The notes: generated by a model from the sequence alone, not told the origin. Positions 2,819-51,011 are shown, counted from the stretch's first letter. The stretch: DNA of 64,000 nt from Promethearchaeota archaeon (GCA_048938855.1 JBHLLT010000016.1:123-64122), one strand, 5' to 3'. Program-made: numbers and translations.

Positions 2819-2830
2819 TTTTTGTTCTAT

Positions 2831-4805: not shown

Positions 4806-4824
4806 AAAAAAAAATATTAGCATT

Positions 4825-5787: not shown

Positions 5788-5802
5788 AATAAATCAATTT
5801 AG

Positions 5803-9096
<3,294 letters not shown>

Positions 9097-19936: not shown

Positions 19937-20068
19937 GCATGATTATTCGGGCAAATAAAACTTCGCTAGGGTAAATTAGAGGCTATATTTAATAAAGCTT
20001 AACCTTAATAAGGATTTAGCGTTAATACAATTTAATTGAATAATAGAGATCTTAGAACGGACATATTT

Positions 20069-20445: not shown

Positions 20446-21431
20446 ATGTTAGAAGATTTATCAATAAAAACATTTCAATATATATTAGGTGATTTTTTAC
20501 GACCAAGAAAATATGTGTTATAGGTCTTGATAATGCCGGTAAAACAAGTATCATAACAGCGATTACCAGAAGGTTTGGTTTTGAGGAAGAAATAGCTAGA
20601 TTAGTACCAACAAGAAGAATAGCGCGTGATACTTTTAAATTTTTGGGTATCGAGTTTACAAGAATGGATTTTGGGGGTCAAAAACAATATCGAGATGAAT
20701 ACCTAAAGCATCCTGAAAAATATCTAAGCGGAACAGATTTAATGTTTTATGTTATAGATGCACAGGATTTTAATCGATATATCGAATCTATAGATTATTT
20801 AGAAGAAGTATTACTTTTTTTGAAGGAAGAACAAGATTATGTTCCAATATGCATTCTTTTTCATAAATTCGACCCCCAACTCGTGGATGACGTACAAATT
20901 AATAAGAGAATCCTTACTTTAAAACAAGCATTAACAAGATATTCCAATGATTTTGATATTTTTTTCTTTGAAACAACGATATTTGATATTAAATCAGTCA
21001 TGGATGCCTTTTCAAGTGGATTGTCAATGTTGTTCGAAAAGGTTGAAATGGTTTCACAATTATTCGCTGAAATAGGTACTAATTATAATTCTATTTTAAT
21101 GGCATTATTTGATTCTCGAGGTTTGACTGTAGGAGAATGGTATAGACCACATCTTCAATTAACAGAGAAAATAAAGATTTATGAAAAATATATGGATCTA
21201 CAAAAACGAATAGTCGAAGAAAATAGACGTCTGCTCGAATTTTCTGATGTTTTTGAAAGTGGAGAGAGATTTTCAGGTATAATTGAGGTACTCAAATTTG
21301 GGAAGATGGATTTTTATTTATTATTCATTATTGAAGAGGATGAAGATTTACAGAAAACTGTTTCAATATTAGATAAAATTGAGGCCGCAAAACCTCAAAT
21401 GGAGAATCTTATTTTGCAAATAATTCAATAA
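20446..21431 (+). CDS. Arf/Rag(Gtr)-like small GTPase with C-terminal roadblock-like domain; reading frame interrupted by a -1 shift near 20493-20499
   Basis: The ATG at 20446 opens frame A (MLEDLSIKTFQYILGDFL..., TAG at 20521). The P-loop ICVIGLDNAGKTS, G3 MDFGGQ and G4 HKFD lie in the -1 frame, which continues as the track ORF 20643-21431. The -1 frame has no ATG/GTG/TTG between its TGA (20490) and the P-loop. The joined length of about 328 aa matches the 321 aa paralogue at 11552-12517. Confidence 0.6.
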
Positions 21432-26557: not shown

Positions 26558-27661
26558 ATGCCAATCGGATTAATCATTATGAGATGGAACGAGAGAGTAG
26601 GTACTGAAATAATGAAGAAGTATCCTGAAGAAATAGAAATTACTGATGGGACACTTATGCAAATATATAGTACTCATGAATACAGTGGAGAATCTGGATT
26701 GATATGTTTAATGATTGGATCGTTAAACATTGCTTCTTATTACACTGGCCCTAAAAATGAACATTATGTAATTCTTTTATTAAACATCGATGAAGATCCA
26801 GATTCTTATGAAGAAGGTTTAGTAGATGTTTCTCGAGTTATTCTACAAAATTTAGATAATAATGCGTATTTTGACATGATACCTTCTCTTTTTCAGAGAT
26901 TAGCTGTCTATCCTACACTTAGTGCTGAACAAATACTTGCATTCACTTATTTTGATGAAGTCAAAAGAATGATCATTGATCGTTTAAGAGTAGATGGCGC
27001 TGTATCTAAATCAGAAATTATAATCTGGCTAAAAGATCAGTATAAACAGGGATTTCTTAATATAGATGCGGATATCATAGAATTAATTAAACGCAATATA
27101 ATTAAACAAGTATCAGTAAAAGGAATACCTTCAGAATTATTATTTCTAATTAATGATATTGTGTGTATGCGAGTTCCTCCAGTAAAATTAGTAAAAAATC
27201 CATTAGAATGGGGTTTACCTTCTACACTTGCAGAAGGTTATAAAATTGAAGTGAAAAAATATTTTCAAGCTTATCGACCTTCAGAAACAGATAATTTAAG
27301 AGTATTAGATGTTCTTACTAATCCACAAGCTTATGAAACTTTATGTTTATTAAGAACTGCTATTGTTACAAGAAATGAGCTAGAAAAATTAAAGAAGAAG
27401 GGCGTAGATGACCTTGATAATGTCTTAAAAATGCTATGGGAATCTCAAATAGTACAAATCTTTCGTGACGAGAACGAAAATGAGTACTATGCTCTTCTTA
27501 CTGATTTTTATATAGATCTGATGTTCCCAAAATATCTAATGAACATTATAAAAATGAATTATGAGAATAAGTCAAAAGCAGAACCAGTTTTAATAGAATA
27601 TCTTACTATATTAGAAGATAATTACATTAATATGAAAAGTACCAAAAAATCTAAAACATAA
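26558..27661 (+). CDS. cytoplasmic partner protein, module 1 (uncharacterised family: longin/roadblock-like N-terminal domain + winged-helix-like repeats)
   Basis: 367 aa with no TM helix. It starts MPIGLIIMRWNERVGTEI 2 nt after the upstream stop codon. It aligns over its full length with 32214-33326 and 38785-39900. Domain assignments are inferred from the predicted secondary-structure pattern only. Confidence 0.75.
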   Translation: MPIGLIIMRWNERVGTEIMKKYPEEIEITDGTLMQIYSTHEYSGESGLICLMIGSLNIASYYTGPKNEHYVILLLNIDEDPDSYEEGLVDVSRVILQNLDNNAYFDMIPSLFQRLAVYPTLSAEQILAFTYFDEVKRMIIDRLRVDGAVSKSEIIIWLKDQYKQGFLNIDADIIELIKRNIIKQVSVKGIPSELLFLINDIVCMRVPPVKLVKNPLEWGLPSTLAEGYKIEVKKYFQAYRPSETDNLRVLDVLTNPQAYETLCLLRTAIVTRNELEKLKKKGVDDLDNVLKMLWESQIVQIFRDENENEYYALLTDFYIDLMFPKYLMNIIKMNYENKSKAEPVLIEYLTILEDNYINMKSTKKSKT

Positions 27662-30800: not shown

Positions 30801-32214
30801 TGAAATAAATGGATATCATCCAATTTATGATGATCCAACTCCGTTGGTTTATTTAGTAAAAGTATTAGCAAAACCTACTACGATTAGCGCTCATGACTAT
30901 AGTTCACTCAATCTAATACCTTCTAGAGAATATTCAGCATATTTCGATGAGTATATTAATATTACAGTTAGATATACAGAAACTGAATTTGGAACGGCTT
31001 TAACTAACGCTCTTTTAAGTTATGAATGGGTTGGTCTTAATCCAATTAGTATCTATTCAGATCCTATAAACCACGAATATTTTACATTTACAATTAATAC
31101 AGGCGATGCGCAGAGTACAGGTCTAAAAGTAATTAGCATTACTGCCTCTTTTGAAAATTATACTAAACAATCGGATTTCATTGTATATCTTAATATTCTC
31201 GAAAGAAAAACAACTCTAAATTCCAAATTAGATGACCTATCTTATATTAGCTCAAGTGTTTATGTTCAAGATCAAAGAAATTTCATTTTCATGTATCGAG
31301 ACGCCAACACTAATAATATAATTGGAGATTTGGCTATTCATAATTTTGTTTGGGAAGAATTATATGAAAACGGAACAAAAGTACCTGGTAGCTTTGGCTC
31401 AGGAAGCCTAATTCAAAATATAAATCATAGCTATACTTTAGATTTTAACACAGAATTAAAACCAGTAGGATACTATTTCTTGTATGTAACTCTTAAACAG
31501 GACAATTATAAACAAAAAAATGCCTTTATTTATTTGGAAATTATATTAAGAGAATTTACTGTAACTATTCAAGATCCCCAATTAGGTAGTAACAATCAAA
31601 TTATTATAACTCAAGGATCTGATATTGATTTTGAAATCCATTTATGGGATGATACTAGATCGATAGAGCTACAAAATGCTATTATTAAATTAAATTTTAG
31701 GGGAATAAATTATACTTTTAATGAAATTCTGACTGAATTTGGTATATATAACGCATCAATTCTAACTAGGAATATAGATACATTTTTTACGGCGCAAACA
31801 TTTGTAGGAAAGATCTACATTGAAGCAGCTAATTTCACTAGCCAAGAGTTTACAATCACAATCACAGTAAAAATGCAAGAAATATGGCCTGGAATGCCAA
31901 CTTTCTATTTCATTTTAATAACATCTGCAATTGCCGCTGTTGTAGGAAGTGTAGTTGGATATAGAGTTATAACGCGAGCAAGAATACCACAACATGTTAA
32001 AAAGATTAGAAAAATCAAAGGTTTAATAAAATCTAAAAAGATGATAGCAGAATCATTTACAGTGCCAACTAAAGAACAAATGATGGTAAAACTATTTGGA
32101 GATGAATGGAAAGAAATAGGATTGTCAATAGAAGAAGCATTAGGGATTACTGATATAAAAAAGAAATCTTCATTAAAAGATAATAAATCATTAGAGCGAG
32201 GTGAGATTGACTAA
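27832..32214 (+). CDS. giant single-pass surface protein, module 2
   Basis: 1460 aa. The signal/anchor is LLLAILFLNIYIGFSV. The DUF2341-like start is DTWWDTDFAYRRLITVTNP...IRIIENN...YLYFGNS. CarboxypepD_reg-like repeats include VVLKDIDGRSVPTANVMIVDN...GRVTFNNIPIGYYNITANYT. The membrane-proximal region, TM helix (FYFILITSAIAAVVGSVVGY) and tail are homologous to modules 1 and 3. Confidence 0.8.
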   Translation: MKIQKINRRQLIRSSLLLAILFLNIYIGFSVNLINSNYDSDNLINVKNTENDKFCNESLKSSVLGNDTWWDTDFAYRRLITVTNPYDINFTDFGVSLILNYAELGSTIQSNLDDIRIIENNQLRKYTVSKDYPNIGFATIWFDTNITQSTTERDTYLYFGNSLAVNSEAKTVSDSFGWIKNGDFELDNSTDQYINPYGWTFSHDQVDQIKDISDPREASNYSLDSYNNFENNLVNINDREMAERVDSGYYAYKWGGEGSFLPQAACKDYVGTFYSYPFKVPIIEGGKIGLHVYRNVRTWFFEDPDSSLPTISNDGYFLRLCNGSDSEYTNEVDLHENIGSGYESWIETYGGFAYISPNRKTLRYHDELKEHFQLDPEIFTRSSTSSDGDLTGSLEIDVSNYMGKEIFIEFGTWGPEDGDIQTVKSGFFQVDNIKFNYTLSAQIEEPQAQVSSVEVVLKDIDGRSVPTANVMIVDNSYAKGSSNYYVANGTGINGRVTFNNIPIGYYNITANYTLGSQSIEVFNSIEKRIGPYYFNGIDYTIDINLNLWTIDFEIVDWDGIPLKYGYIEINESLGGALLDTLTLDSSGKATFRWLNSSNFYYRVYYNNDDYGINFSPTILNESSISRSDYVKDNVKFRHHTIYVNQSSIGSYSVSEKFYTDGSRTVLGNKKITKANITLNNMENYMTDISVYYIDKDDSTTGNLLYYKEYSGQVTSDFIELDIAEINNINLLNDNYKIYGLLVEVNGYNTSQSNGLINVNFIETCNVKVRTPLARLNIRLTYFSDVDKEYKPLSGTIKVIDNATGFHLLNLSAISDRDGYAYAPKNSYETPFWYLINRVYNFSIDVAHNPNVDFNITYINPSQWIPAPGEKIKWFNYTLYQNSSITFNVIPEVETNFTQYDTEFNSSFGMTEVIWGENLVFWAELLSTDDDWQTSDFVPQPPGSCILTIKLAGSDEVLKTLEMNYNGNGNYTLTYNSGLISAGNDWEYYNIEINGYHPIYDDPTPLVYLVKVLAKPTTISAHDYSSLNLIPSREYSAYFDEYINITVRYTETEFGTALTNALLSYEWVGLNPISIYSDPINHEYFTFTINTGDAQSTGLKVISITASFENYTKQSDFIVYLNILERKTTLNSKLDDLSYISSSVYVQDQRNFIFMYRDANTNNIIGDLAIHNFVWEELYENGTKVPGSFGSGSLIQNINHSYTLDFNTELKPVGYYFLYVTLKQDNYKQKNAFIYLEIILREFTVTIQDPQLGSNNQIIITQGSDIDFEIHLWDDTRSIELQNAIIKLNFRGINYTFNEILTEFGIYNASILTRNIDTFFTAQTFVGKIYIEAANFTSQEFTITITVKMQEIWPGMPTFYFILITSAIAAVVGSVVGYRVITRARIPQHVKKIRKIKGLIKSKKMIAESFTVPTKEQMMVKLFGDEWKEIGLSIEEALGITDIKKKSSLKDNKSLERGEID
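32198..32205 (+). promoter_or_regulatory. Shine-Dalgarno-like site for the module-2 partner gene
   Basis: GAGGTGAG lies 8 nt upstream of the ATG at 32214. That ATG overlaps the upstream TAA by 1 nt (TAATG). Confidence 0.55.
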
Positions 32215-33326
32215 TGCCAATAGGATTAGTAATAATGAGATGGGATATAAAAGTGAGTACAGAAATCCTCGCTAAGTATCCAAGGGAACTGATTATTAGT
32301 GATGAGACTCTCATGCAAATTTATGCTGCTCATGAATATACTGGGGAGCCGGGTATGATTAGTTTATTAGTTGGGCCTTTAAACATTGCATCTTATTATA
32401 CAGGACGAGAAAAACCGCTCTATATCATACTATTACTAAACTTAGATGAAGACCCCGATACTTATGAAGGTGGTCTATCTGATATCTCACGAGTGATATT
32501 TCAGAATTATGAAGATAAAGCTTATTTGGATATGATTCCGTTTCTCTTTCAAAGATTATCCACTTATCCTAATTTAAATGATGAACAAAGCTTAGCTTTG
32601 ACTTATTTAGATAACGTAAATTGTTTGATAATAGAGAGATTAAGAGAAGAAGGGGTAATTACTAAGTCAGAATTAAAGATCTGGTTAAGAGATCGATATC
32701 GAGAAGGGTTTTTTGATGTAGATGCTATTTTAATGGAACTCATTAAAAAAGAAATCGTTAAAGAAACATCAGTAAAAGGAATGCCCTCCGAATTGATTTT
32801 TCTTATTAATGATCTTTTAATGATAAGAAGGCCCCCTATAAAATTACTAAAAAATCCTATAGAACGAGGACTTCCGGAGAGATTTGTAGAGGAATATAAT
32901 GTTGCTGTCAGAAAATTCTTTCAAAAGTACCGACCTTCAGAAGAAGATAATCTAAAAATCCTTGATCTGGTTATTGGAGACCCACAGGTCTATGAAATAT
33001 TGAGACTTCTAAGGATTTCAATAGTAACTAAGAATGTATTGGAAAAACTTCGGAAAAAAGGAGTGGACGATATAGATGGTGGTTTAAAGAAATTATGGGA
33101 AAGTCAGTTGATACAAGTATTTCAGGATAACAAGGGGAATGAGTATTATGCTTTAATTTCTGATTTTCATTTATCTTTAGTATATCCTAAATATATGCTT
33201 AATATGATCATTCAACAATATACTGTAAAATCAAAATCAAGTAGTGTTTTAATCGAGTATCTAAATGTTCTTGATAACAATTATCGATCTATCAAACTGA
33301 AAGCGGATGTAAAAGAAGAAGACTAG
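32214..33326 (+). CDS. cytoplasmic partner protein, module 2
   Basis: 370 aa starting MPIGLVIMRWDIKVSTEI. It is collinear with the module 1 and 3 partners. Confidence 0.75.
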   Translation: MPIGLVIMRWDIKVSTEILAKYPRELIISDETLMQIYAAHEYTGEPGMISLLVGPLNIASYYTGREKPLYIILLLNLDEDPDTYEGGLSDISRVIFQNYEDKAYLDMIPFLFQRLSTYPNLNDEQSLALTYLDNVNCLIIERLREEGVITKSELKIWLRDRYREGFFDVDAILMELIKKEIVKETSVKGMPSELIFLINDLLMIRRPPIKLLKNPIERGLPERFVEEYNVAVRKFFQKYRPSEEDNLKILDLVIGDPQVYEILRLLRISIVTKNVLEKLRKKGVDDIDGGLKKLWESQLIQVFQDNKGNEYYALISDFHLSLVYPKYMLNMIIQQYTVKSKSSSVLIEYLNVLDNNYRSIKLKADVKEED

Positions 33327-33367: not shown

Positions 33368-34408
33368 TTATAGATTGCTTAAATAACCTTTTAATTTAAT
33401 TGCTTTTTCATGAAATTCCTTATAAAGATTATCATCGCCTAATTCTAAGCACAGATCTGAAATTTTATCAAAATACTCTGCGGTCTGGGCAATATCTCCG
33501 TTTTCTAAACTAACTTTCGCTTGGTGAATCAACTGATCTCTTTCGAATAAAGGTTTTAATAATGGTGAAGCATCAGTGCTAACTTCTAAGATATCTGCAA
33601 TAATTTGAATCATTTTTTCTCTATTATTTGGATCAATTGCTATCATTGAATATGTTTTCAAGCCAAGGATTTCTTCAATGTTTTGTATACTTAAAGCATT
33701 ATCCAAATCTTGTTTGTTACCTATAATAGCAGTATGGGTATAAGGGGCATGTTCCTTTACTAATTCAATAAAAAATTTGCTTTTTTCGACGTTTTCCAAT
33801 GTAGAGTCTGTAATGATAAGAACAGCATCACTTCCTTTAATAAAATCATTCCAGAGATAACTAAATTGTTCTTGTCCAGCAAAATCCCATAAATGAAAAT
33901 ATAATTTTCCAATTTTAACAGTTGAGATCTTCCCTGTTATAGTGGGGATATGGACAGATGGAATTTCAGTTGCGCAAATTAATGTTGTGGTGGTTGTTTT
34001 TCCAACACCAGAAAATCCCACTAATGAAATCTTGGTCTTAAGATTTCTATGGATAGAATCTACTATTGGATCAAGTAATTCCATCAGAGAAGAATCTAAG
34101 TTATCTATAGCATCACCAAAAGTATCTAAAAATTCTTTTCGAAGATTTGCTAATTCACTTTTAGATCGAGAGAGATCATCATTAATGTCGGTTATAAACA
34201 TAAATATTAATTTAAAATCCTCTTCTAATACAAAAATTATCTTATATTTAATATAATCATAACTATTGAGCTCAATACCAGTACCCTTTTTAGACACTTC
34301 CATTATTTCTTGGTAAAGTTTATTAAAATCTTCTTCTGATATTGCTTTACCGAAATTTTTATTGTAAAGTACTTTTTCATCCCTTAAAATATAAACTTGT
34401 CTTAACAT
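33368..34408 (-). CDS. small Ras-superfamily GTPase with N-terminal longin-like domain and C-terminal helical extension
   Basis: 346 aa. G1 is GFSGVGKTT, G3 is WDFAGQE and G4 is GNKQD. About 125 aa N-terminal to the P-loop (MLRQVYILRDEKVLYNKNF...YKIIFVLEEDFKLIFMFITD...) has a longin/SRX-like beta-beta-alpha-beta-beta-beta pattern. Confidence 0.75.
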   Translation of the reverse strand: MLRQVYILRDEKVLYNKNFGKAISEEDFNKLYQEIMEVSKKGTGIELNSYDYIKYKIIFVLEEDFKLIFMFITDINDDLSRSKSELANLRKEFLDTFGDAIDNLDSSLMELLDPIVDSIHRNLKTKISLVGFSGVGKTTTTTLICATEIPSVHIPTITGKISTVKIGKLYFHLWDFAGQEQFSYLWNDFIKGSDAVLIITDSTLENVEKSKFFIELVKEHAPYTHTAIIGNKQDLDNALSIQNIEEILGLKTYSMIAIDPNNREKMIQIIADILEVSTDASPLLKPLFERDQLIHQAKVSLENGDIAQTAEYFDKISDLCLELGDDNLYKEFHEKAIKLKGYLSNL

Positions 34409-34933: not shown

Positions 34934-37900
34934 ATGAAAGGACTAAGAATTGATTCAAAGAAGGTAATTTCTCTTACATTTTTATTGATTCTCTCATTGA
35001 GTTCAGTTTTATTATTATTTCCATCAAATTTTTTGAATTCAACAGAATTCAATCAAAATCCAGAAGAAGATAAAAAAGATAATAATTTCCGCCCATTGTT
35101 AAATGGTCCAATAGGTGAAGATCCTTGGTGGAATGTATCATATCAATGGCGCCAATGTATCAATATTACAAATCCGGGAGATTATAATTTAACTAATAAT
35201 TTCATTAGTATTCAGTTTAATTATGCAACTTTACGTGATAATTATAATATGGATCCTAACCTATACGACGTTAGAATAGTAGAGAATAATGTGGTAAGAA
35301 AATATTATGTAAAGAAAGACTTTCCTAACCTCGATACCGCAACTATATGGTTCGAAAATAATGTTACAACAGGAGAATCTGAATATGATACTTATATGTA
35401 TTGGGGGAATGCGTCCATTAATAATCGTGGAAGTAAACATCTCAATTATGATCCATCTGGATCCTCTTGGTGGCAATTTGAAGAAGGTTCTGGAGGGTAT
35501 GATTCTATTGTTCATGATTCATTAGATAATGCTGACGGTCATCTTTATGGAAGTAGTAGTAGTTATTATCCAGATTATGATTCAGATAGTGCTGTTGGAG
35601 AATATTCAATAAGTTTTGATGGTTCGCATGATTTTATATATATTGAGGATTCATTACATTATACTAATCCAAATGAGATTTCAGCTGTAACTGTTAGCTG
35701 TTGGTTTAAAACATCATTTTCAAGTAGTGGAAATTGGGATAACTGGGCGTTTTTTGATTTTGATAGATCAGAATATTTCAATTTCTTTATCACTGGAAAT
35801 GGAAGAATAGGTTTTGCTAGTTCAGCTACAGGTTATAGCGGTCAAAATGACTTTTTTGGGAGCGTTTCAGGTTTGAATGATGGTGAGTGGCATTTTGCCT
35901 GTGTAGTTTATGATGGAGTTGACAAATACATATATGTTGATAATTATGCTCCAGAGATTTGGGCCAATGCTATGGGAGGAAATGCTTTTGGAACCGGTAC
36001 TGATAGATGGGGATTTATCGGCGATGGTTCTGAAGCTACAGCAGAAAATGGAAATAGAAACAATTTTTATTATGATGGAAATATTGATGAAATTAGATAT
36101 TTTGATTATGCTGTTAATCCTGATGAAATTCAATGGCTAGCAAATTATTATTCAATTGATACAAATTTATTATCTGTTACAGAGCGAGCTGCTGCAGTAA
36201 CTATCACAGTAAAAGATATTGATAATCGATTAGTTCCTGGAGCAGAAGTTTCTTTATGGAAAAACTCTACTGATATCTTAGTATTACGTGGTGTTCCATA
36301 TACTGAATATTCCTCATCAGATGGTACAGTGTCTTTCACAAAAGTGCCTTTTGGTTTTTACAATATTACTGTGAATTATACTCTCAATTCCGGTTTGTAT
36401 GAAGAAGTTGTTTATGATAGCAGAGTTCAACCTCCTGGTGAAGTAGAATTCAAGGGATTAATTGTCAATGTTAACGTTACTGCAGATCTTTGGACAATTG
36501 ATTTTGAAGTAAATGATTGGGATGGAGATCCATTTGACCACGGCTTTGTACAAGTGGGAAATGCTACAGATTATATATTAGAAACTTTAACTTTAGACTC
36601 TGGGGGAACTGCAACCTTTCGCTGGACTGATCAACCCAATTATAATTATACAGTATATTATGATAATGTAGATTATCTAGGAAATCCAACTCGTTTAAAT
36701 TCTAGTACCATTACATATACTGGGCCAGCAATTTATGTTGAACATGTAAGAACAAGTATGTCTAAATTAGATATAAGAGTTATTGATGACACAGAAACTG
36801 TACCTGTAGAAGGTATTACAGTTAGAGTTGAGAACAGCTCATCAGGTGTTCATATAATTGATCTTAAAACAGATGATAATGGTAACGCATACGGTTTAAC
36901 TAATAGTGATGTTGGCTTTTGGTATAAAAGAAATACTATATATAACTTATCCTTATGGGTTGTGACAGAACAACGTACATTCAGAGTAAATTCTTCAGAT
37001 CAAGCTTTTAATCCTTCTACAATTTTAGATTACTATGAATACAATTTAAATTCAAGTTCTTCCTTAGTATTTGAATTAGATTTAAACTACCAAAACAGGT
37101 TATCTCGATTTTATAATAATAGTCTCGTTGCTGATTATAGTGTTGTTTTTGGTCAAAATATGTCATTTTCGATTACGTTAGAAACTTCTGATACTGGTCT
37201 TCCCGGCCCATGGGTAGCTGATGATGGTGTTGGGACAACAATAAGTTGTATAATTAAAAGTACTGCTATTGGAAACCCTACTATATACACAAAGAATATG
37301 GATTATACTATAAATGGAACATTTACTAGTGAAATTAACTCGAGTCGTTTTTCTGCTGGTGACTATGGTAAATCCTATATTGTCACTTTATCAGGTGTTA
37401 AATCATACTATAATAGTCCTGAAGATATCTTATTTGTTATATCAATAGACTCAATTTCTACTGGTATGAGCTTCCATGATTATTCTTCAATGCCCGATGA
37501 ATTACCTATAAATGAAGTCTCTCAGTATTATGATGAATTAATCAATATAACAGTAAAATATTATGATAAAAATAATAATCAAACTTTAGTTGCGGATACA
37601 TTTACTTATACTTGGGATTATGGTTCTGGCACTGTAAATTCTGATCCTTTAAATCCAGGATATTATACAGTTGAGATAGATACATCAGCAGCTACTAATG
37701 TCGGCAAATATCTTATAAAATTCACAGCAGGACGAGAGAATTATACAAAAATTGATAATTATGGATTATTTATCAATATCTTATCAAGACCGACGACCAT
37801 TAATGGTGAAGATGGAATTTTATATATCTCCCAAGACATCTTCATATTTAAAGAATTGAACTTTACTTTTATTTATTTAGATGAGATGAAAGGTACGCCT

Positions 37901-38785
37901 ATTTCAAATTTAGATGAAATGAGTTATTTATTACAAAAGCTTGATGAAAATGGTGATCCTATACCTGGTACTGCCGAAACAGGTTCTCTAGTAGCAGGAG
38001 TAGATGAGTTTATTTTGGACTTTAATACAGAAACAAGGCTAGATGGAGAATATTCAGTAATTGTGACTTTAGACAAAATGAACTGGGATCACAGAATTGC
38101 TATTATTTCATTGACAATAATGAAAAGAGAAGCGGATGTTACATTACCTGAACCTCCATTTGTTGGTACCAAAATATCAATCGCTTCAGGAGCAGCTTTA
38201 AATTTTGCTATTACTCTTACTGATCCAAATAATGAAACAGTTCCAAATGCTCCGATAAGAGGAGCAAATGTATATTTAACTATACAAGGTAGAGATATTC
38301 CATTTACTTATAATGGCAGTGGTGTTTATATTATTCAACCAACAGTTATTGCTGATGCCTTTTTTATGCCTCAAACATTTACAGCTACTCTCACTATTGA
38401 GAAACAGTATTTCTCCACTTCGGTAACTAGTATTACAGTAGTAGTTAATATGCAAGAAATCTTTGGATTTCCTATGTTCTATTTCTTGATGATAGTAGGA
38501 GCGGTTGTAGCCGTCGTAGGAAGTTTAGTTGCTTATCGTACCATCCAGAGAGCTAGAATTCCAAAGTTCGTTAAAAAAGTGAGAGAAATGAAGAAAAATA
38601 TAAAAGGAAAGAAAGATATTTCAGAATCACTATTATATCCAACTAAAGATGAATATATTGTGAAAAAATTAGGAGAAAAATGGGAAGTAATTGGATTATC
38701 ATTAGATGAAATTATGGGTCTCAGAGGTAAAAAGTCTAAGAAATTACCCGGAATGAATCAAGAATTTAAAGGAGGTGTTGATTAA
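34934..38785 (+). CDS. giant single-pass surface protein, module 3 (DUF2341-like + LamG/concanavalin-like + CarboxypepD_reg-like repeats, TM, conserved tail)
   Basis: 1283 aa. The DUF2341-like start is DPWWNVSYQWRQCINITNP...VRIVENN...YMYWGNAS. The LamG_3-like segment is FDGSHDFIYIEDS...VSCWFK...WHFACVVYDGVDKYIYVDN...IDEIRYFDYAVNPDEIQWL. The TM helix is FYFLMIVGAVVAVVGSLVAY. Confidence 0.8.
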   Translation: MKGLRIDSKKVISLTFLLILSLSSVLLLFPSNFLNSTEFNQNPEEDKKDNNFRPLLNGPIGEDPWWNVSYQWRQCINITNPGDYNLTNNFISIQFNYATLRDNYNMDPNLYDVRIVENNVVRKYYVKKDFPNLDTATIWFENNVTTGESEYDTYMYWGNASINNRGSKHLNYDPSGSSWWQFEEGSGGYDSIVHDSLDNADGHLYGSSSSYYPDYDSDSAVGEYSISFDGSHDFIYIEDSLHYTNPNEISAVTVSCWFKTSFSSSGNWDNWAFFDFDRSEYFNFFITGNGRIGFASSATGYSGQNDFFGSVSGLNDGEWHFACVVYDGVDKYIYVDNYAPEIWANAMGGNAFGTGTDRWGFIGDGSEATAENGNRNNFYYDGNIDEIRYFDYAVNPDEIQWLANYYSIDTNLLSVTERAAAVTITVKDIDNRLVPGAEVSLWKNSTDILVLRGVPYTEYSSSDGTVSFTKVPFGFYNITVNYTLNSGLYEEVVYDSRVQPPGEVEFKGLIVNVNVTADLWTIDFEVNDWDGDPFDHGFVQVGNATDYILETLTLDSGGTATFRWTDQPNYNYTVYYDNVDYLGNPTRLNSSTITYTGPAIYVEHVRTSMSKLDIRVIDDTETVPVEGITVRVENSSSGVHIIDLKTDDNGNAYGLTNSDVGFWYKRNTIYNLSLWVVTEQRTFRVNSSDQAFNPSTILDYYEYNLNSSSSLVFELDLNYQNRLSRFYNNSLVADYSVVFGQNMSFSITLETSDTGLPGPWVADDGVGTTISCIIKSTAIGNPTIYTKNMDYTINGTFTSEINSSRFSAGDYGKSYIVTLSGVKSYYNSPEDILFVISIDSISTGMSFHDYSSMPDELPINEVSQYYDELINITVKYYDKNNNQTLVADTFTYTWDYGSGTVNSDPLNPGYYTVEIDTSAATNVGKYLIKFTAGRENYTKIDNYGLFINILSRPTTINGEDGILYISQDIFIFKELNFTFIYLDEMKGTPISNLDEMSYLLQKLDENGDPIPGTAETGSLVAGVDEFILDFNTETRLDGEYSVIVTLDKMNWDHRIAIISLTIMKREADVTLPEPPFVGTKISIASGAALNFAITLTDPNNETVPNAPIRGANVYLTIQGRDIPFTYNGSGVYIIQPTVIADAFFMPQTFTATLTIEKQYFSTSVTSITVVVNMQEIFGFPMFYFLMIVGAVVAVVGSLVAYRTIQRARIPKFVKKVREMKKNIKGKKDISESLLYPTKDEYIVKKLGEKWEVIGLSLDEIMGLRGKKSKKLPGMNQEFKGGVD
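38771..38777 (+). promoter_or_regulatory. Shine-Dalgarno-like site for the module-3 partner gene
   Basis: GGAGGTG lies 7 nt upstream of the ATG at 38785, which overlaps the upstream TAA (TAATG). Confidence 0.6.
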
Positions 38786-39900
38786 TGCCAATAGGATTAG
38801 TAGTAATGAGATGGGATGAAAGAGTTGGAACTGAAATTCTTGCAAAATATCCTGAAGAAATTAATGTAACTGATAAAACCCTAATGCAAGTATACAGTAC
38901 TCATGAGTACAGTGGAGAATCTGGTATGATAAGTTTAATGATTGGTTCCTTAAACATTGCCTCATATTATACAGGACCTGATAAAGGATTTTATATCCTC
39001 TTACTTCTAAGCCTTGATGACGATCCTGATTCTTATGAGGGAGGATTGATTGACATATCACGCATAATTATCCAAAATATGAAAGATAATGCTTATACAT
39101 CAATGATCCCTACTTTATTTAGAAGGCTTTCCGTTTATCCTACATTAAATAATGAGCAACGACTTGCTATTACATATCAAGATGAAATTAAAAGGATGAT
39201 TCTAAACCGTTTAAGGGATGAAGGGGTGGTATCTAAGTCGGAATTAATGGTCTGGCTGAAAGACCAATATAAACAAGGTTTTGTAGATTTAGAAGGAGTG
39301 TTAATTGAACTTGTTAAACGTGATATCGTTAAAGAAACATCAGTTAAAGGTATGCCTTCAGAACTTATATTTTTAATACAAGATATAATTGCTTTAAGAG
39401 TACCTCCGGTTAAAATGTTAAAGGATCCTGCTACTCGAGGTCTACCTGTACAACTTGTAAATGATTACCTCATGGAAGTTAAGAAATTCTTTCAAAATTA
39501 CCGACCAACAGAAGGAGACAATCTTAGAATCATAGATATTCTTATCAATCCTCAAGTTTATGAAACTTTAAGGTTACTAAGAACAGCGATAGTTACTAAA
39601 AATGATCTTGAAAAACTAAGAAAAAAAGGGGTAGATGATCTTGATGATGTATTAAAAGTGCTATGGGACACTCAAATGATTCAAGTTTTCCAAGATGAGA
39701 GGAATAACGAATACTATGCCCTCCTGTCAGATTTCTATCTGAATTTAATATTCCCAAAATATCTCTTAAACATAATCAAGAATGTATATGATCAAAAGTC
39801 TAAAGCAAACCAAGTTTTAGTTGAATATCTAACTGTTTTAGAAAATTCTTATCAAGAAATTAAAGCAGCTGCTAAAGCTGAAGCAAAAGCTAAAGTATGA
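38785..39900 (+). CDS. cytoplasmic partner protein, module 3
   Basis: 371 aa starting MPIGLVVMRWDERVGTEI. It is collinear with the other two partners. Confidence 0.75.
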   Translation: MPIGLVVMRWDERVGTEILAKYPEEINVTDKTLMQVYSTHEYSGESGMISLMIGSLNIASYYTGPDKGFYILLLLSLDDDPDSYEGGLIDISRIIIQNMKDNAYTSMIPTLFRRLSVYPTLNNEQRLAITYQDEIKRMILNRLRDEGVVSKSELMVWLKDQYKQGFVDLEGVLIELVKRDIVKETSVKGMPSELIFLIQDIIALRVPPVKMLKDPATRGLPVQLVNDYLMEVKKFFQNYRPTEGDNLRIIDILINPQVYETLRLLRTAIVTKNDLEKLRKKGVDDLDDVLKVLWDTQMIQVFQDERNNEYYALLSDFYLNLIFPKYLLNIIKNVYDQKSKANQVLVEYLTVLENSYQEIKAAAKAEAKAKV

Positions 39901-39905
39901 TTCGA

Positions 39906-39922
39906 TTTTTTTTATTTTTTTT
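39906..39922 (+). terminator. oligo(T) terminator candidate after module 3
   Basis: T8-A-T8 begins 6 nt after the stop codon at 39898-39900. Confidence 0.5.
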
Positions 39923-40004
39923 GTCTTCATTTTTATATTCATAATATTTTTGTATTCTCAAAGATTGTTTTTCTTAATAAATATACAATAATTTAAAAAA
40001 AAAA

Positions 40005-41342
40005 GTGAATAAAATGGAAGGAGAATTTCCGTCTTGTGAACAGTATTATGATATACCTGAAGCGATTGGTTTAGATGGTGTGGATTTAGAAAAATATATC
40101 ATTGCTAGTTATATTATTAAGCGACCAAAAGGTATGAATGTTAATTATTTAACTCGCTTTGCCGCAATTGAACAATCTACTGGAACGTGGGTAAGAGTTC
40201 CTGCTGAAACTGCTGAAGTAAGAAAATACCATGTAGCAAGAGTGCTTGGAGTGTATGAGCTTCCTCATTGGGAATATGTAATACCTAAAGATATTAAAGA
40301 TAGACTATATTTCGCTCAAATCGCATTCCCAATAGAAAATATTAAAAATATGGGAATTCCAATGCTCTTTAGCACCGTTATTGGTAATATTAGTATAACT
40401 CATGGATTGAAATTAGTTGATCTCGCATTTCCTAAAGCATGGTTAGAAGATTTTAAAGGACCAAAATTTGGTATTGATGGAATCCGAAAACTTATGAAAA
40501 TTCCTGAACGCCCTCTCTTAAATAATATGGTTAAACCATGTACTGGTCATACAGCTGAAGTTGCGGCTGATCTAGTTTATCAGGCAGCAGTAGGAGGTTG
40601 TGATGTAGTAAAAGATGATGAGTTAATCTCTAATCCCCCCTTTAATACTCTTGAAGAGAGAATTGTAAAGGTTATGGAGGCTGTAGATAAAGCTGATTCT
40701 GAGAAAGGGGAAAAGACTTTATACACTATAAATATCACCACAAGATTTCCTGATATGTTTGAATACGCAGATAAGATGATTGAGTTAGGAGCTAATGCAT
40801 TAATGATAAATTATTTAACGACTGGTTATGAAGCATTAAGGCAGATAGCAGAAGATCCTTCTATAAATGTCCCAATTTTAGGTCATATGGATTTCGGTGG
40901 TACATATTTTGGAGGTGAATGGACAGGAATGACAAGCATGTTGACATTTGGGAAATTACCGAGAATTTGTGGGGCAGATACAGTTGTTATTCCAGCACCT
41001 TATGGTAAAGCTGAGATTGTAGAAGAGAGATATGAGCAAACTCTTAAAGCTCTTCGATATCCACTTAGTCATATTAAACCAACATTACCTATGCCATCAG
41101 GTGGAATTACACAGGGGATGGTAGAAAAATGTATTAAAGAGGCTGGGAAGGATATTCTTATTGGAAGTGGTGGTGGTATCCATAGCCATCCTGACGGTCC
41201 AATAGCAGGCGCAAGAGCATTTAGACAAGCTATAGATGCTGTGATGGAAGGTAAAAGTGTTAAAGAAGTTGCAAAAGAAAAAAAGGAATTGGGAATAGCC
41301 CTTGGTGTATGGGGTACTGGGAAAACTCAGCTTATTGAATAA
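40005..41342 (+). CDS. RuBisCO large-subunit-like protein (form III-related / form IV-like; several catalytic residues substituted)
   Basis: 445 aa. EQSTGTW, GNISI, GGCDVVKDDE (carbamyl-Lys motif), PSGG and GGGIHSHPDGPIAGARAFRQAIDA match RbcL. However, KPK is replaced by VKPCTG, HRAMH by GHMDFGG, and the His327 position is lost. Confidence 0.8.
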   Translation: MNKMEGEFPSCEQYYDIPEAIGLDGVDLEKYIIASYIIKRPKGMNVNYLTRFAAIEQSTGTWVRVPAETAEVRKYHVARVLGVYELPHWEYVIPKDIKDRLYFAQIAFPIENIKNMGIPMLFSTVIGNISITHGLKLVDLAFPKAWLEDFKGPKFGIDGIRKLMKIPERPLLNNMVKPCTGHTAEVAADLVYQAAVGGCDVVKDDELISNPPFNTLEERIVKVMEAVDKADSEKGEKTLYTINITTRFPDMFEYADKMIELGANALMINYLTTGYEALRQIAEDPSINVPILGHMDFGGTYFGGEWTGMTSMLTFGKLPRICGADTVVIPAPYGKAEIVEERYEQTLKALRYPLSHIKPTLPMPSGGITQGMVEKCIKEAGKDILIGSGGGIHSHPDGPIAGARAFRQAIDAVMEGKSVKEVAKEKKELGIALGVWGTGKTQLIE

Positions 41343-41368: not shown

Positions 41369-42328
41369 TTAATATAATAACGAATCTTTTAGAATAACCT
41401 TGATATTCTTATCAAAATAATTTGGATTCATTTCTTCTCCGAGGGGATTACCTCTCAAATCTAAATATTTAAGTTTTTTTAAACTTAAAATATAATCTAC
41501 GTTCTTAATTTCACTGATATTATTATTTGTTAAAATTAAATGCGTTAATTCTTTTAATTGAATTAACTCTTTAATGTTATCAATATTATTATTCGATAAA
41601 TCAATTTTTTTTAAAGATTTTAGATATTTTAATCCTAAAATTTCCGAAAGGGATTGTATATTGTTTTTCCATCCAAAAGGAGTGCCTTTGACTTCATATT
41701 CTAAATAATCTGATAAATCTAATTCTATAATTAATCCTTTTTGTGGATCTAATTCATAATATACATTAGAATATTTGCTTATTAGATTTTTAATCGTAAA
41801 ATAATTAATTAAAATTTCTGCTAATTCACTATGGGTAAATTTATCTATCTGTTTTGTTTTAGTGAATTTTTTAATTACTTTTTTATATTTTTTATTTTCA
41901 ATCCTTTTTTCTTTATTAAGATATTTCGTTTTTATTATCTCTTTGATTTTCTTAACTAAAATCAGCTTAGATTCATCATTATTTATCCTTTCTAATGATT
42001 GGATTATTATAACCAGGCATTCATAATCTGTTTCATGGATAAGTGCCCATTTTATGGGATTAATAGCTTTATCAAGGAATCTATCTTTTAAAATTTTGGT
42101 TGCCGCATTTCTTATTTTTTCATTTGAATCAGAAATAAGTAGATTTTCTAAAAATTTAAAGAGTTCATCACTAATTAACTCAATTTTTTCTAAATTTACA
42201 ATAGCACTTAATCTTATACTTTCATCCTCACTGTTTTCAACTAAAGACCTTATTAAATCAAATGCAGTATTTTTTTTGATCTTATTTTTGCTTAGATCTT
42301 CATATATTTCATCAGGAGTTAAATTCAT
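41369..42328 (-). CDS. HEAT-like + leucine-rich repeat protein (short paralogue)
   Basis: 319 aa. The N-terminal approximately 130 aa are collinear with 47776-49278 and 49521-51011 (LENLLISDSNEKIRNAA...PIKWAL.HE). The C-terminal LRRs read L..LDLS.N.I..I. Confidence 0.7.
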   Translation of the reverse strand: MNLTPDEIYEDLSKNKIKKNTAFDLIRSLVENSEDESIRLSAIVNLEKIELISDELFKFLENLLISDSNEKIRNAATKILKDRFLDKAINPIKWALIHETDYECLVIIIQSLERINNDESKLILVKKIKEIIKTKYLNKEKRIENKKYKKVIKKFTKTKQIDKFTHSELAEILINYFTIKNLISKYSNVYYELDPQKGLIIELDLSDYLEYEVKGTPFGWKNNIQSLSEILGLKYLKSLKKIDLSNNNIDNIKELIQLKELTHLILTNNNISEIKNVDYILSLKKLKYLDLRGNPLGEEMNPNYFDKNIKVILKDSLLY

Positions 42329-47775: not shown

Positions 47776-49278
47776 TCATTTGTAAACCTTTAATCCTCTA
47801 TCCTCTAGTCTTTTAAGAAATTCTGGTATTTTCCTTATATAATTATTAAAATTTAAGTACAGAATTCTTAATGATGAGAGATTGCCTAAAGTTTTAGGAA
47901 GAAATTTTAAATTATTCCCCCATAAATTTAACTCTTCTAATGAAGAAAGTGAATCTATCCATTCTGGTATTCTTGTGAGATTATTCCAACTTAAATCTAA
48001 CTTTTTTAGGGAATTTAAATTTTTAAATGGTTCTGGTAAGATTGAAAGATTGTTATTCCTTAAAATTAGAGTTTCTAAGGAATCTATTGAACCTATTTCA
48101 TCAGGAAGAGTTTTTATATTACAATCGTAGAGATTTAATTCTCTTAGAGAATTTAAATTTCTTAATAGAAAAAAATCAATTGAAAGTTTATTCCCTCCTA
48201 AACCTAAAGATCCCAAACTTTGAAGTTTACTAATTGAATCAGGAAGAAATTTAAGCTTATTTAAGCCTAATTCTAATTTAATTAAAGATTTAAATTCTTC
48301 CATTGATTCTGGTAAAAAATTTAACTTGTTCCCATGTAAATCCAAAATTTCTAATGATCTTAGGTTAGTGATTTCAGGTGGAAGAAATTTAATATTATTA
48401 TGTCTTAAATTTAAAGTTTTCAACTTCTTTAATCTCCCAATAGAGATTGGAATTTCATTAATCTTATTGTATTTCAAGTTTAAGTACTCCAATGATTTTA
48501 AAAAGCCGAAAGATTCAGGTAAACTCCTAAGATTATTATTACTGAGATCTAAATAGGTAAGATATTCAAGATTTCCGATTGTCTTAGGCAATTTTGTTAT
48601 TCTATTAATTTTTAAATCCAATAATCTTAGATATTTAAGAGTACTAATGAATTCTGGTAATTTTTTTAAAATTTTCCATCCAAAAACATTAGTACTAATT
48701 CCGGATAGGTCTAATGATGTTACAAGACCTTCATCCAATTTATAACTAATATCATTGAATTCCTTTTTATAATATCCTATAAGGATATAATTACTTAATA
48801 TTTCTGAAAGTTGTATTGATGTGTAACTAGTTATTTTTTTAGATTTAATAACATCTCTTAGACTTTCGTTAAACTCATATAGCTCCAAATTATTGATCTT
48901 ATCCAGTAAAAATGTTTTAGCTTTTTCACTATTTATCATACCTATTGTTGAAACAATAGAAATAAGGCAAGATGTAGAAGATTCATGTTGGAAAGCCCAT
49001 TTCATTGGCTTTAAAGCTTTTTGTATAAAGTTTTGTGAGATTGCTTTGATAGCGGTATTTCTTACTTCTTCATGAGAATCAGATATTATAAGATTTTCAA
49101 ATAAATTGAAAACTTCTTCATCTTTTGAACCAATTTTTACTAAAAAATCAATACTTTCAATTCTTAATTTTGGATCATCGAAATTATTAATTAAAGCAAA
49201 TAATTGATTTACAGCCGATTGCTTTTCCAAATTTCTATTTTGGTATTCTTTATAAATTAAGCTGGGAGATATTTTCAT
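47776..49278 (-). CDS. HEAT-like + leucine-rich repeat protein
   Basis: 500 aa. The N-terminal helical repeats are FENLIISDSHEEVRNTAIKAI...PMKWAFQHE. They are followed by about 13 LRRs of the L..L.L..N.L..LP..IG.L..L type. Confidence 0.75.
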   Translation of the reverse strand: MKISPSLIYKEYQNRNLEKQSAVNQLFALINNFDDPKLRIESIDFLVKIGSKDEEVFNLFENLIISDSHEEVRNTAIKAISQNFIQKALKPMKWAFQHESSTSCLISIVSTIGMINSEKAKTFLLDKINNLELYEFNESLRDVIKSKKITSYTSIQLSEILSNYILIGYYKKEFNDISYKLDEGLVTSLDLSGISTNVFGWKILKKLPEFISTLKYLRLLDLKINRITKLPKTIGNLEYLTYLDLSNNNLRSLPESFGFLKSLEYLNLKYNKINEIPISIGRLKKLKTLNLRHNNIKFLPPEITNLRSLEILDLHGNKLNFLPESMEEFKSLIKLELGLNKLKFLPDSISKLQSLGSLGLGGNKLSIDFFLLRNLNSLRELNLYDCNIKTLPDEIGSIDSLETLILRNNNLSILPEPFKNLNSLKKLDLSWNNLTRIPEWIDSLSSLEELNLWGNNLKFLPKTLGNLSSLRILYLNFNNYIRKIPEFLKRLEDRGLKVYK

Positions 49279-49520: not shown

Positions 49521-51011
49521 TTAAATTTTTATGTTTAAATCTTTATTTCTTTCATAATCTTTCAAAAATGATGGTAGGTGCTCGAACCTATTAAAACTTA
49601 GATCTAAGGTTTTTAGATTAGATAAATTACAAATTGATTCAGGGAGAGAAGTAAGTTGATTTCCCCAGAGATTTAGTTCTTCTAATGAAGATAATTCACA
49701 GATCCATTCTGGAAGAAATGTAAAGTTATTCCAACTTAAATTAAGGTTTCTAAGATTTTTAAGATTTTTCATAGATTCAGGTAATTGAGACAATTGATTA
49801 TTTCGTAAAATAAGCATTTCTAAACGAGAAAGTGTGCCTAATGAATTAGGTAATTTATCAATTTTATTATCATATAAATCTAATATTTTTAATGATTGAA
49901 ATAGAGAAATCCATTTAGGAAGTTTTTTCAATTTATTTCCACCAATCCCCAGTCTCTCTAATGAAGTAAGAGATTTTACTTTTGTTGGGATTTCCAAAAA
50001 ATTATTCCAACCTAATTCTAACTCGATAATCGAATTATTCAGTTCAAATCCAATTGAATCTAATTTATTTCCATGTAGATTTAAAATCTTAAGATTTTTA
50101 AGTGGTTTTATTGATCTAGGGATTTTATTTATCATATTATTTCTTATATTTAAAACTTGAAGTGATTTTAACCTACTTAGAGAGTTTGGAAGATTGTGTA
50201 ATCTATTAGACTTTAAATTTAGACTCTTTAATGATTTTAATTTAAAAATTGAATTTGGAAGATTACTTAGCTTATTATAACTTAAATCTAAAGAAACTAT
50301 TGAAACTGATTCAACTGAAATTTCTTTAAGTTCTGAGAGATTGTTAAATCTCATATCAAGTTCTTCTAAATACTTCAGAGAATATATAAAATCTAAGAAA
50401 TTTGAAATAGAAATTCCTTGGGGATCAACATTTGTTAAATCTAATTTTGTGATATAACCCCATTTATTAAATTCATATTTTATAAATCCAAATTTACTTT
50501 TTAGAGATTTAATAAAATAATAGTTTACTAACAGATCAGCAAGAACTTGGATACTTAAATTTTTAAATTCTTCAGTTCTGACAATTATTTCCAAATTATA
50601 CTTATTCTCTTGCTGATAGAAATATTTTAATTTTTCAATGATGATTAATTTGGATTTTTTATTATTAATCTTTGATAATGTAGAGATAATTGTAATAAGA
50701 CAGATTATTGCTTTCTCATGTTCAAGAGCCCATTTCATTGGTTTCAACGCTTTCTCTAAAAATAGTTGCTGTATTAGGGAAGCTGCTTTATTTCTTATAG
50801 TTTCATTTGAATCTGAGATTAGTAGATTCTCTAAAAGTGTAAATATTTTATCCTCTTTAACCTGTATTTTTTCTAAGATCTCAATACTTTCTAATCTTGT
50901 TGAAAAATCATCAGTATTTTCAATTAAAGTAATTAATAAGTCAAGAGCTGACGCATAATCCAAATTTTTTCTCTTTAAATCCTGATAAATTGATTTTGGT
51001 GTTAAGGACAT
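49521..51011 (-). CDS. HEAT-like + leucine-rich repeat protein (tandem paralogue)
   Basis: 496 aa with the same architecture and a collinear N-terminus (LENLLISDSNETIRNKAASL...PMKWALEHE). Confidence 0.75.
   Translation of the reverse strand: MSLTPKSIYQDLKRKNLDYASALDLLITLIENTDDFSTRLESIEILEKIQVKEDKIFTLLENLLISDSNETIRNKAASLIQQLFLEKALKPMKWALEHEKAIICLITIISTLSKINNKKSKLIIIEKLKYFYQQENKYNLEIIVRTEEFKNLSIQVLADLLVNYYFIKSLKSKFGFIKYEFNKWGYITKLDLTNVDPQGISISNFLDFIYSLKYLEELDMRFNNLSELKEISVESVSIVSLDLSYNKLSNLPNSIFKLKSLKSLNLKSNRLHNLPNSLSRLKSLQVLNIRNNMINKIPRSIKPLKNLKILNLHGNKLDSIGFELNNSIIELELGWNNFLEIPTKVKSLTSLERLGIGGNKLKKLPKWISLFQSLKILDLYDNKIDKLPNSLGTLSRLEMLILRNNQLSQLPESMKNLKNLRNLNLSWNNFTFLPEWICELSSLEELNLWGNQLTSLPESICNLSNLKTLDLSFNRFEHLPSFLKDYERNKDLNIKI

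Follow-up and report, generated by a model that had tools for sequence, protein, structure and literature searches.

In a stretch of 64,000 nucleotides (nt) from a Promethearchaeota archaeon (GCA_048938855.1 JBHLLT010000016.1:123-64122), referred to here as the window, three tandem two-gene modules occupy the plus strand between 22.9 and 39.9 kb. Each module pairs an open reading frame (ORF) for a giant surface protein (P1, P2 or P3) with one for a smaller, acidic partner (Q1, Q2 or Q3), and the pair probably forms a modular surface receptor, in which a conserved cytoplasmic tail anchors a co-translated or fused adaptor built of longin and winged-helix domains that may serve as a small-GTPase platform. 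A preliminary description of this DNA had read the tail as a docking site for a cytoplasmic protein. That is still the best explanation of its conservation, with Q itself as the most likely protein to dock there, given the natural fusions of tail and Q, the adjacency of their genes, a tail that follows Q in its divergence, and AlphaFold confidence that depends on the presence of Q. We regard a physical link between tail and Q as highly probable.

The features of the modules are listed below (aa, amino acids; SD, Shine-Dalgarno sequence; TM, transmembrane; pLDDT, predicted local distance difference test).

22896-26555, plus strand: P1, giant surface protein of 1219 aa, with its tail at 26310-26552 and SD AGGTGA at 26546-26551
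26558-27661, plus strand: Q1, partner of 367 aa, 66 % identical to Q3, starting 2 nt past the P1 stop codon
27832-32214, plus strand: P2, giant surface protein of 1460 aa, with its tail at 31963-32211 and SD GAGGTGAG at 32198-32205
32214-33326, plus strand: Q2, partner of 370 aa, joined to P2 by a TAATG junction
34934-38785, plus strand: P3, predicted type-I giant surface glycoprotein of 1283 aa, from ORF and translation
38450-38536, plus strand: outer juxtamembrane motif M.EIF(P)G.P.FYF and TM helix ending at Tyr1201 (P3 aa 1173-1201)
38537-38719, plus strand: cytoplasmic tail core, the proposed docking element for Q3 (P3 aa 1202-1262)
38720-38782, plus strand: variable Lys-rich linker ending ..KGGVD, pLDDT <50, whose final codons hold the Q3 ribosome-binding site
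38771-38777, plus strand: SD GGAGGTG of Q3, in the P3 codons Gly-Gly-Val, 7 nt upstream of the ATG
38783-38787, plus strand: TAATG, overlap of the P3 stop and Q3 start codons by 1 nt, read from the sequence
38785-39900, plus strand: Q3, acidic, predicted cytoplasmic partner of 371 aa, modelled as a longin domain at the N-terminus, a pair of winged-helix domains and helices at the C-terminus
39901-39925, plus strand: oligo-T tracts directly 3' of Q3, a terminator-like end of the bicistronic unit

The giant proteins and their shared tail

Outside the modules the window, which has a GC content of 29.7 %, is ordinary chromosomal DNA, and its homologues mark it as that of an Asgard archaeon of Promethearchaeota/Lokiarchaeia type. 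The N-terminus of each giant is basic and hydrophobic; behind the long ectodomain come one C-terminal hydrophobic helix and a tail of 81-83 residues with an isoelectric point (pI) of about 10. The order in P3 is an N-terminal signal or anchor, a Laminin_G_3/ConA-like domain (Pfam E=3.5e-11), Ig-like (CarboxypepD_reg) domains with weak matches, the C-terminal TM helix and the cytoplasmic tail; its hydrophobic segments are at the N-terminus and at aa ~1180-1200. P3 carries 26 NxS/T sequons, compared with 17.4+-3.5 in shuffled sequences, and sequon density is 2.3-2.6 per 100 residues in the P ectodomains versus 0-0.27 in the Q proteins. Q1-Q3 have no hydrophobic segment and a pI of 4.9-5.2 (Q3 5.2). 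Because P and Q contrast in sequons, hydrophobicity and pI, the ectodomain is placed outside the cell and the tail and Q inside. To judge from these sequence features, the giants are type-I, heavily N-glycosylated surface proteins with fast-evolving ectodomains. A Longin match within the P2 ectodomain (Pfam E=0.07) was dismissed as sub-threshold noise.

The tails begin, at the R of YR.I, at nt 26310 (P1), 31963 (P2) and 38537 (P3), close to the positions given in the preliminary description, and its observation that the three proteins share a tail next to the TM helix while their ectodomains have diverged is borne out by block-wise identities. In 60-column blocks, P1-P3 are 15-35 % identical across most of the ectodomain and ~40-50 % close to the membrane, and they reach 57-73 % in the block that holds the TM helix and tail; the mutual identity of Q1-Q3 is 58-66 %. 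The P3 tail core reads R.IQ.ARIP.FVKK.R.MKK.IKGKK.ISESLLYP.K.E.IVKKLG.KWE.IGLSL..I.G and has a net charge of +7.

With many more homologues aligned this conservation is not lost, and the motif is sharp in an alignment of 124 tails from Asgard genomes and metagenomes, of which 79 are split from Q (window, related loci and metagenome fragments) and 45 are fused to it. A word-indexed search with the tail peptide added only 32 short fragments at contig ends, which were used in the logo and lack full-length context. G1178 and P1210 are conserved in 100 % of the tails; Y1201, I1223 and W1250 in 99 %; F1212 in 98 %; K1238 in 96 %; P1180, F1182 and Y1183 in 95 %; Y1235 and S1256 in 94 %; K1214 in 93 %; V1213 in 92 %; and G1254 in 91 %. 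The linker behind the core varies in length among orthologues, with PE-rich insertions in loci L003 and L019. Between core and SD it has grown by 30-60 Pro/Glu/Lys-rich low-complexity residues in L003, L016, L018, L019 and L021, and the Gly-Gly end is retained there.

The tails of P1-P3 belong to no family in Pfam or NCBIfam. Matches to FtsW and DUF3311 were dismissed as TM-helix noise.

Conservation and fusion of the pair, and the gene junction

Q3 found 48 related loci in a scan of species-representative genomes; the taxon labels of the metagenome-assembled genomes (MAGs) are those of the records and are mutually inconsistent. In 44 of the 48 loci, the ORF immediately upstream of Q is on the same strand and closes with a TM helix and tail of the same kind. 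Orthologues at the Q3 site are 85-94 % identical in Q, 70-88 % in the TM helix and tail, and anywhere between 81 % and ~30 % in the ectodomain.

An exhaustive search with Q3 returned giants of 1,330-2,548 aa that carry the Q domain in frame behind the tail. At 50 % identity these fused giant-TM-tail-Q proteins, found in many MAGs and several times per MAG, group into nine clusters, and at 90 % into about 45; a profile of the first fusions recovered about 45 further fused clusters. At the join, ...K(K/R)IS..V...D.K is followed by P(I/L)GL.LMKWDERIGTE, in most cases without the initiator Met. In L049 a complete fused ORF of 2661 aa can be read from the DNA, and the same MAG holds a split module (L008); in view of this continuous ORF and about 45 independent clusters, gene-calling artefacts were rejected as an explanation. 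Natural fusions of this kind are classical evidence that two proteins, here the giant and Q, act jointly. The tail core is equally conserved in the fusions, where an SD is unneeded.

Exchange of ectodomains points the same way. In five loci (L007, L009, L010, L015 and L043) the ectodomain, encoded ahead of Q at ~2300-6000, is 68-78 % identical to that of P1 and ~30 % to that of P3, whereas Q is of the Q3 type (87-92 % vs 65-66 %) and the tail of the P3 type. Sliding windows locate the switch from P1-type to P3-type sequence at the TM helix, and the cytoplasmic core of L009 is identical to P3 at 41/50 positions and to P1 at 31/50. Mantel tests over 30 complete modules gave r = 0.73 between tail core and Q (partial r 0.67 given the ectodomain) and r = 0.50 between tail core and its own ectodomain (partial r 0.35). 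Averaged over the same modules, distances fell from 0.63 in the ectodomain through 0.39 in the TM segment and 0.35 in the tail core to 0.20 in Q. From the cassette switches and the Mantel results it follows that ectodomains are exchangeable on a constant TM-tail-Q chassis. Two 'headless' modules, L028 (~5440-6000) and L029 (~5530-6000), consist of an ORF of 156-187 codons, for a short N-terminal part, the TM helix and the tail, and an overlapping Q; the ectodomain is lost, tail and Q are kept, and an Arf-like GTPase lies directly upstream.

More distant relatives keep the association in other forms. In L052 Q is 40 % identical and follows a 2988-aa giant with a recognisable tail at a 0-nt gap; in L053 Q is 36 % identical, with a 2-nt gap after a giant of 2511 aa; in L054 (2544-4744) Q is 34 % identical and the gene order is reversed, with Q first and a 4-nt overlap; and in L055, the record of which we take to be that of an Odinarchaeote, Q is 30 % identical and is followed by a 136-aa gene and then by a 1552-aa giant. 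An association so old, recurrent and rearranged speaks for a function and against mere inherited synteny. The membrane protein of L054 has 362 aa, and its small ectodomain is a homologue of the giants' membrane-proximal region, with TM helix and tail recognisable. At L051:6792-7001 a tail-like ORF of 69 aa (FLKNIKALRTEINGGKPISKSILY...) without a TM helix overlaps Q by TAATG and is probably the remnant of a degraded giant gene. A contig of 1210 bp binned as 'uncultured Hyphomicrobiales bacterium' (L039, CAZOBD010000420.1) encodes a Q homologue 71 % identical to Q3 and is most likely a mis-binned Asgard contig.

The preliminary description had placed the ribosome-binding site of each partner in the last codons of the tail, and the same three sequences were recovered 6-8 nt before the partner ATG: AGGTGA at 6 nt (Q1), GAGGTGAG at 8 nt (Q2) and GGAGGTG at 7 nt (Q3). 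Its stop-start overlap TAATG in modules 2 and 3 and its 2-nt junction in module 1 (TAA-TA-ATG) were also found as described. The window has 47 ORFs of 100 aa or more, and an SD match of at least 6 nt at proper spacing precedes Q1-Q3 only, which exceeds chance. At all three junctions, then, the genes share a strand, are at most 3 nt apart or overlap, and have an SD within the upstream ORF at 5-11 nt, which are the sequence criteria of a coupled pair. Of the 44 related loci, 28 have a 1-nt overlap (TAATG or TGATG), 12 a distance of 0-3 nt and the 4 most diverged a distance of 15-29 nt, so that the junction is at most 3 nt in 40/44; GGAGGTG(A) lies 5-11 nt upstream of the start in 35/44.

The SD has left a mark on the protein. 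In 74 split tails Gly-Gly (P3 1280-1281) reaches 92-100 % conservation, and it occurs in 0/45 fused tails; it is therefore the ribosome-binding site, and not protein function, that fixes the two residues. In three species (L003, L006 and L019) the start of Q is none of ATG, GTG and TTG; its frame runs TGA ACC ATA ATT CCA after GGAGGTGA, and the TAA of the giant overlaps the ATT (TAATT), leaving the near-cognate ATT or ATA as starts (L003:5987-6006, L006:411-430, L019:5987-6006). This is easiest understood if terminating ribosomes reinitiate. T-runs follow Q1 (from 27662), Q2 (from 33327) and Q3, and none lies between P and Q. Translational coupling of Q to the giant ORF, which had been proposed earlier, is strongly suggested by the overlap, the SD within codons, the split-only Gly-Gly, the ATT/ATA starts and the oligo-T after Q, and we think it likely on these sequence grounds. 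A ribosome-binding site in the last codons and a TAATG junction are ordinary operon biology: coupled bicistronic operons of bacteria and archaea share the TAATG, TGATG or 0-3 nt junctions, the GGAGGTG within coding sequence and the lack of an intergenic terminator. What differs here is the imprint at protein level and the tolerance of ATT/ATA starts in three species, and the module cleanly illustrates how a translation signal can fix amino acids at the end of a protein.

The tail might be conserved for reasons other than docking, either through constraint on the start site at the nucleotide level or through a dileucine/tyrosine motif read by adaptor-like proteins. The final 4-5 codons are indeed shaped by the SD, and the tail does contain ESLLYP. 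But the SD accounts for the terminal Gly-Gly only, and the core lies 60-250 nt upstream and is no less conserved where Q is fused. The resemblance to acidic-dileucine/tyrosine sorting signals, mentioned in the preliminary description, does not survive inspection: the canonical [DE]xxxL[LI] and Yxx-hydrophobic patterns are absent, since (D)ISESLL has its acidic residues at -2 and -5 and not at -4, and YPTK and YIVK end in Lys without a bulky hydrophobic residue at +3. Nor does the segment look like a free linear motif, for it is modelled as ordered (pLDDT ~96 with Q), and the Pro of LLYP, present in 95 % of split tails, is mostly replaced in fusions, most commonly by Arg. Conservation also extends over ~60 residues with predicted helices and not over a motif of 4-6 residues. 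Such an origin of the conservation is thus extremely improbable.

Fold of Q and proposed docking of the tail

Q1-Q3 match no Pfam or NCBIfam family and are named 'hypothetical' in every database; a PDB sequence search with Q3 alone as query gave nothing meaningful. The fold was approached by modelling P3 aa 1165-1283, joined to Q3 as an artificial fusion, in AlphaFold on an 88-row alignment. The tail-plus-Q model has a pLDDT of 91 and a predicted template modelling score (pTM) of 0.82, and its TM region is a helix at model residues 16-43. In the model, Q begins with a longin-type beta-beta-alpha-beta-beta-beta-alpha domain, which leads through a helix to two winged-helix domains (WH1, Q ~123-197; WH2, Q ~243-313), and it ends in C-terminal helices. 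The longin elements (E122-129, E133-140, H148-161, E165-171, E174-180, E187-193 and H199-215) have pLDDT >90 and form the core fold of the longin superfamily.

NPRL2 and NPRL3 (yeast Npr2 and Npr3) are subunits of GATOR1/SEACIT, the GTPase-activating protein (GAP) complex for Rag GTPases. When the model was compared with the PDB by Foldseek, the top match was the GATOR1 subunit chain 8fw5_C (E=3.1e-4, probability 0.98, 440 aligned columns), although its superposition gave template modelling scores (TM-scores) of 0.21/0.24 and a root-mean-square deviation of 22 A; further GATOR1/SEAC chains stood at ranks 4, 5, 8, 16 and 18. The longin domains of VAMP7, Sec22b, Ykt6 and zeta-COP, peptide complexes included, matched with probability 1.00 and target-normalised TM-scores of 0.45-0.58, and ESCRT-II winged helices and the longin-based guanine nucleotide exchange factors (GEFs) Fuzzy-Inturned, DENND1A and Mon1-Ccz1 were also found. 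A longin domain with two or more winged helix-turn-helix domains is the architecture of NPRL2/3 (PMC3747258), and families of 'NPRL2-like longin' have already been catalogued in Asgard genomes (bioRxiv 10.1101/2020.10.19.343400). Q, as modelled, has this architecture. The likeness includes best and repeated full-length Foldseek matches to GATOR1/SEACIT chains and two GTPases, one Rag-like and one Arf-like, encoded in the same stretch of 20 kb; it differs in that no DEPDC5-like partner was seen and Q is tied or fused to the tail of a surface protein. Pfam NPR2/NPR3 did not match Q1-Q3 (E<=0.1), and neither model was among the families listed for 56 diverse members (E<=1). Because of the low TM-scores and this lack of membership at sequence level, Q is not filed as an NPRL2/3 orthologue.

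Between strands 1 and 2 of Q lies a WDxxxG(T) motif that resembles the WD...GP of C9orf72-type GAP longins (PMC12290439). The comparison of their spacing is tentative and serves as a lead only.

The winged helices could also suggest that Q is a membrane-tethered transcription factor, sequestered and released by the tail in the manner of anti-sigma factors, ToxR or Notch. A profile of 56 diverse Q relatives matches, over WH2, the ArsR-type winged helix-turn-helix of PH1932 (E=2.6e-4) and HlyU (E~0.01), and some family members match HTH_20, HTH_5 or TrmB. One fused giant fragment (P0315) bears the Joint Genome Institute name 'DNA-binding transcriptional ArsR family regulator'; WH2 presumably prompted this name, which is probably misleading. 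The winged helix-turn-helix fold is indeed there, but the basic DNA-reading recognition helix and wing of ArsR/SmtB proteins are not. In Q3 the equivalent of the recognition helix in WH2, DDLDDVLKVLWD, has a net charge of about -4, that of WH1 reads DLEGVLIELVK and is acidic too, and the net charge of WH2 is -3 to -7, in a protein of pI ~5; this argues against DNA binding. The winged helices of NPRL2/3 and ESCRT-II are protein-binding modules (PMC3747258). Fusion to membrane proteins of 1,300-2,600 aa would, moreover, require proteolytic release, and no signal for it was seen. We consider a transcription factor improbable.

As a control for docking, the tail was also modelled by itself, on an alignment comparable to that used with Q. 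The tail alone gave pLDDT 73 and pTM 0.36, with the same secondary structure as with Q. Over residues 41-100, in blocks of ten, pLDDT was 84, 84, 70, 71, 72 and 64 for the tail alone and 93, 98, 96, 94, 96 and 84 with Q; the linker stayed below 50 in both. Tails have a net charge of +8 to +12 and Q proteins of -7 to -12, the negative charge being mainly on the longin domain and WH2. The confidence gained in the presence of Q and the complementary charges fit docking of the tail on Q, and the pTM of 0.82 appears higher than would be expected if about 100 residues floated free. Longin SNAREs (VAMP7, Ykt6, Sec22b), the SRX domain of SRalpha with SRbeta, and Ragulator with LAMTOR1 likewise offer a membrane-proximal longin or roadblock platform to a helical segment, a GTPase or both; here, in contrast, the bound segment would be the tail of a giant glycoprotein encoded upstream, and there is neither a SNARE motif nor a lipid anchor.

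Such a partner need not signal, and Q might instead be devoted to its giant as a factor of biogenesis, sorting or quality control, with FPG.P.FYF and the TM helix as a Loki-CTERM-like signal. Strict one-to-one pairing, each giant with its own co-translated partner, would suit that role, as would the position of the most invariant residues (G1178, P1180) at the outer membrane boundary, and the SRX domain of the receptor for the signal recognition particle is also of longin fold (PMC3747258). The NCBIfam Loki-CTERM (NF033507) match is weak, with 12.5 bits in P1 against a cut-off of 19.9 and no match in P2 or P3, and the segment is not C-terminal: 81-83 residues lie beyond the TM helix, and >450 in the fusions. 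The headless modules retain TM helix, tail and Q with no ectodomain to sort, cleavage of the fused forms would leave Q membrane-anchored for good, and Q relatives exist that stand alone. On balance a sorting factor seems unlikely, and we prefer a receptor with a docked adaptor.

A receptor model and its genomic neighbours

Each module would thus be a two-gene unit that builds one receptor-like complex. The giant would contribute an exchangeable ectodomain, a TM helix, a basic helical tail of ~60 residues and a floppy Lys-rich linker, and the tail core would dock onto Q, so that one Q is anchored beneath each receptor. A ribosome that ends the giant ORF would meet GGAGGTG in the Gly-Gly codons and restart at the overlapping ATG, giving one-to-one output, and a sister clade would reach the same outcome by in-frame fusion of Q to the tail. 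The membrane-anchored longin domain may then act as platform or regulator for a small GTPase, for which the adjacent Arf-like GTPase is a candidate, and events at the ectodomain, such as contact with partners or substrates, might be relayed to GTPase-controlled processes inside the cell. In its large variable ectodomain, single TM helix and short conserved basic tail, here proposed to bind a dedicated adaptor, the module resembles metazoan adhesion receptors that follow integrin-talin logic; this is analogy only and not homology.

The GTPase concerned is encoded between the second and third modules:

33368-34408, minus strand: Arf/Ras-like small GTPase of 346 aa, divergent from P3, with an N-terminal extension of ~118 aa (Pfam Arf E=8e-19)

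An Arf-like GTPase takes the same position, divergently upstream of a P3-type module, in 17 related loci, and a longer paralogue follows the fused giant in L049. We propose it as a candidate downstream component of the module. A role of Q as a small-GTPase platform is possible, if doubtful. A further step, in which the tail-anchored NPRL2/3-like longin pairs with and regulates the Arf-like GTPase as a GAP/GEF platform, and the module is an Asgard prototype of receptor-to-GTPase wiring, is more doubtful still and rather unlikely. If true, it would couple contact between cells or with a substrate to remodelling of the membrane or cytoskeleton, and recognition of cargo tails by longin adaptors would be older than eukaryotes.

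Several points weigh against the receptor model. Docking is argued indirectly, from confidence values of an artificial fusion and not from contacts. A Q relative with 27 % identity stands alone in L050, which suggests that the tail is not strictly required, and the tails of the giants in L053 and L055 are unrecognisable. The NPRL2/3 likeness is one of fold and architecture, with no match in Pfam NPR2/NPR3. The link to the GTPase, a weaker part of the argument, comes from synteny among fairly close relatives and one second context. Lastly, an internal promoter for Q may be present in this 30 % GC DNA.

No description of the module was found in the literature searched, and it is unannotated in every source. 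Longin adaptors and coupled operons are known; what appears to be new is the combination, next to a small GTPase, of hypervariable, exchangeable ectodomains with a constant TM helix and tail and with an NPRL2/3-like partner that is either split off or fused. In a cultured Lokiarchaeon, cryo-tomography showed unexplained 'complex surface proteins' in place of an S-layer (PMC9834061). The present family of giant glycoproteins is large and rich in paralogues, and it seems hard-wired to an NPRL2/3-like longin/winged-helix protein by coupling or fusion. Exchange of ectodomains at the TM helix suggests that surface specificity has diversified under one intracellular read-out. A tail peptide of ~60 residues, a soluble partner of ~370 residues and a neighbouring GTPase offer a concrete handle on whether receptor-to-longin-to-GTPase logic preceded eukaryotes, which is of interest for Asgard cell biology and eukaryogenesis.

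Further observations concern the neighbouring genes. The N-terminal extension of the Arf-like GTPase has a hydrophobic pattern that is longin/roadblock-like by eye, and Pfam finds nothing there. At 20493-21431 on the plus strand a Rag/Gtr1-like GTPase is encoded whose first canonical start codon comes only after the P-loop, VIGLDNAGKTS. The ATG (MVQKI...) of its orthologues in L045 and L046 corresponds to an ACG in the window, at 20499 and 6 nt past AGGTGA, and the window gene is either ACG-initiated, or a start-codon mutant or pseudogene, or affected by a sequencing error. Just upstream of it, at 20036-20350 on the plus strand, is a small ThiS/Urm1-like ORF (ubiquitin-like beta-grasp; Pfam ThiS E=2.5e-5), and the two are adjacent in L045 and L046 as well. 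Directly downstream of Q3, at 40005-41342 on the plus strand, lies a RuBisCO large-subunit-like gene with a GTG start, which is kept there in 39 related loci and occurs as two sequence types (~90 % and ~54 % identical). Three paralogous proteins with HEAT and leucine-rich repeats are encoded on the minus strand at 41369-42328, 47776-49278 and 49521-51011, the first of which adjoins the RuBisCO-like gene in 34 loci.

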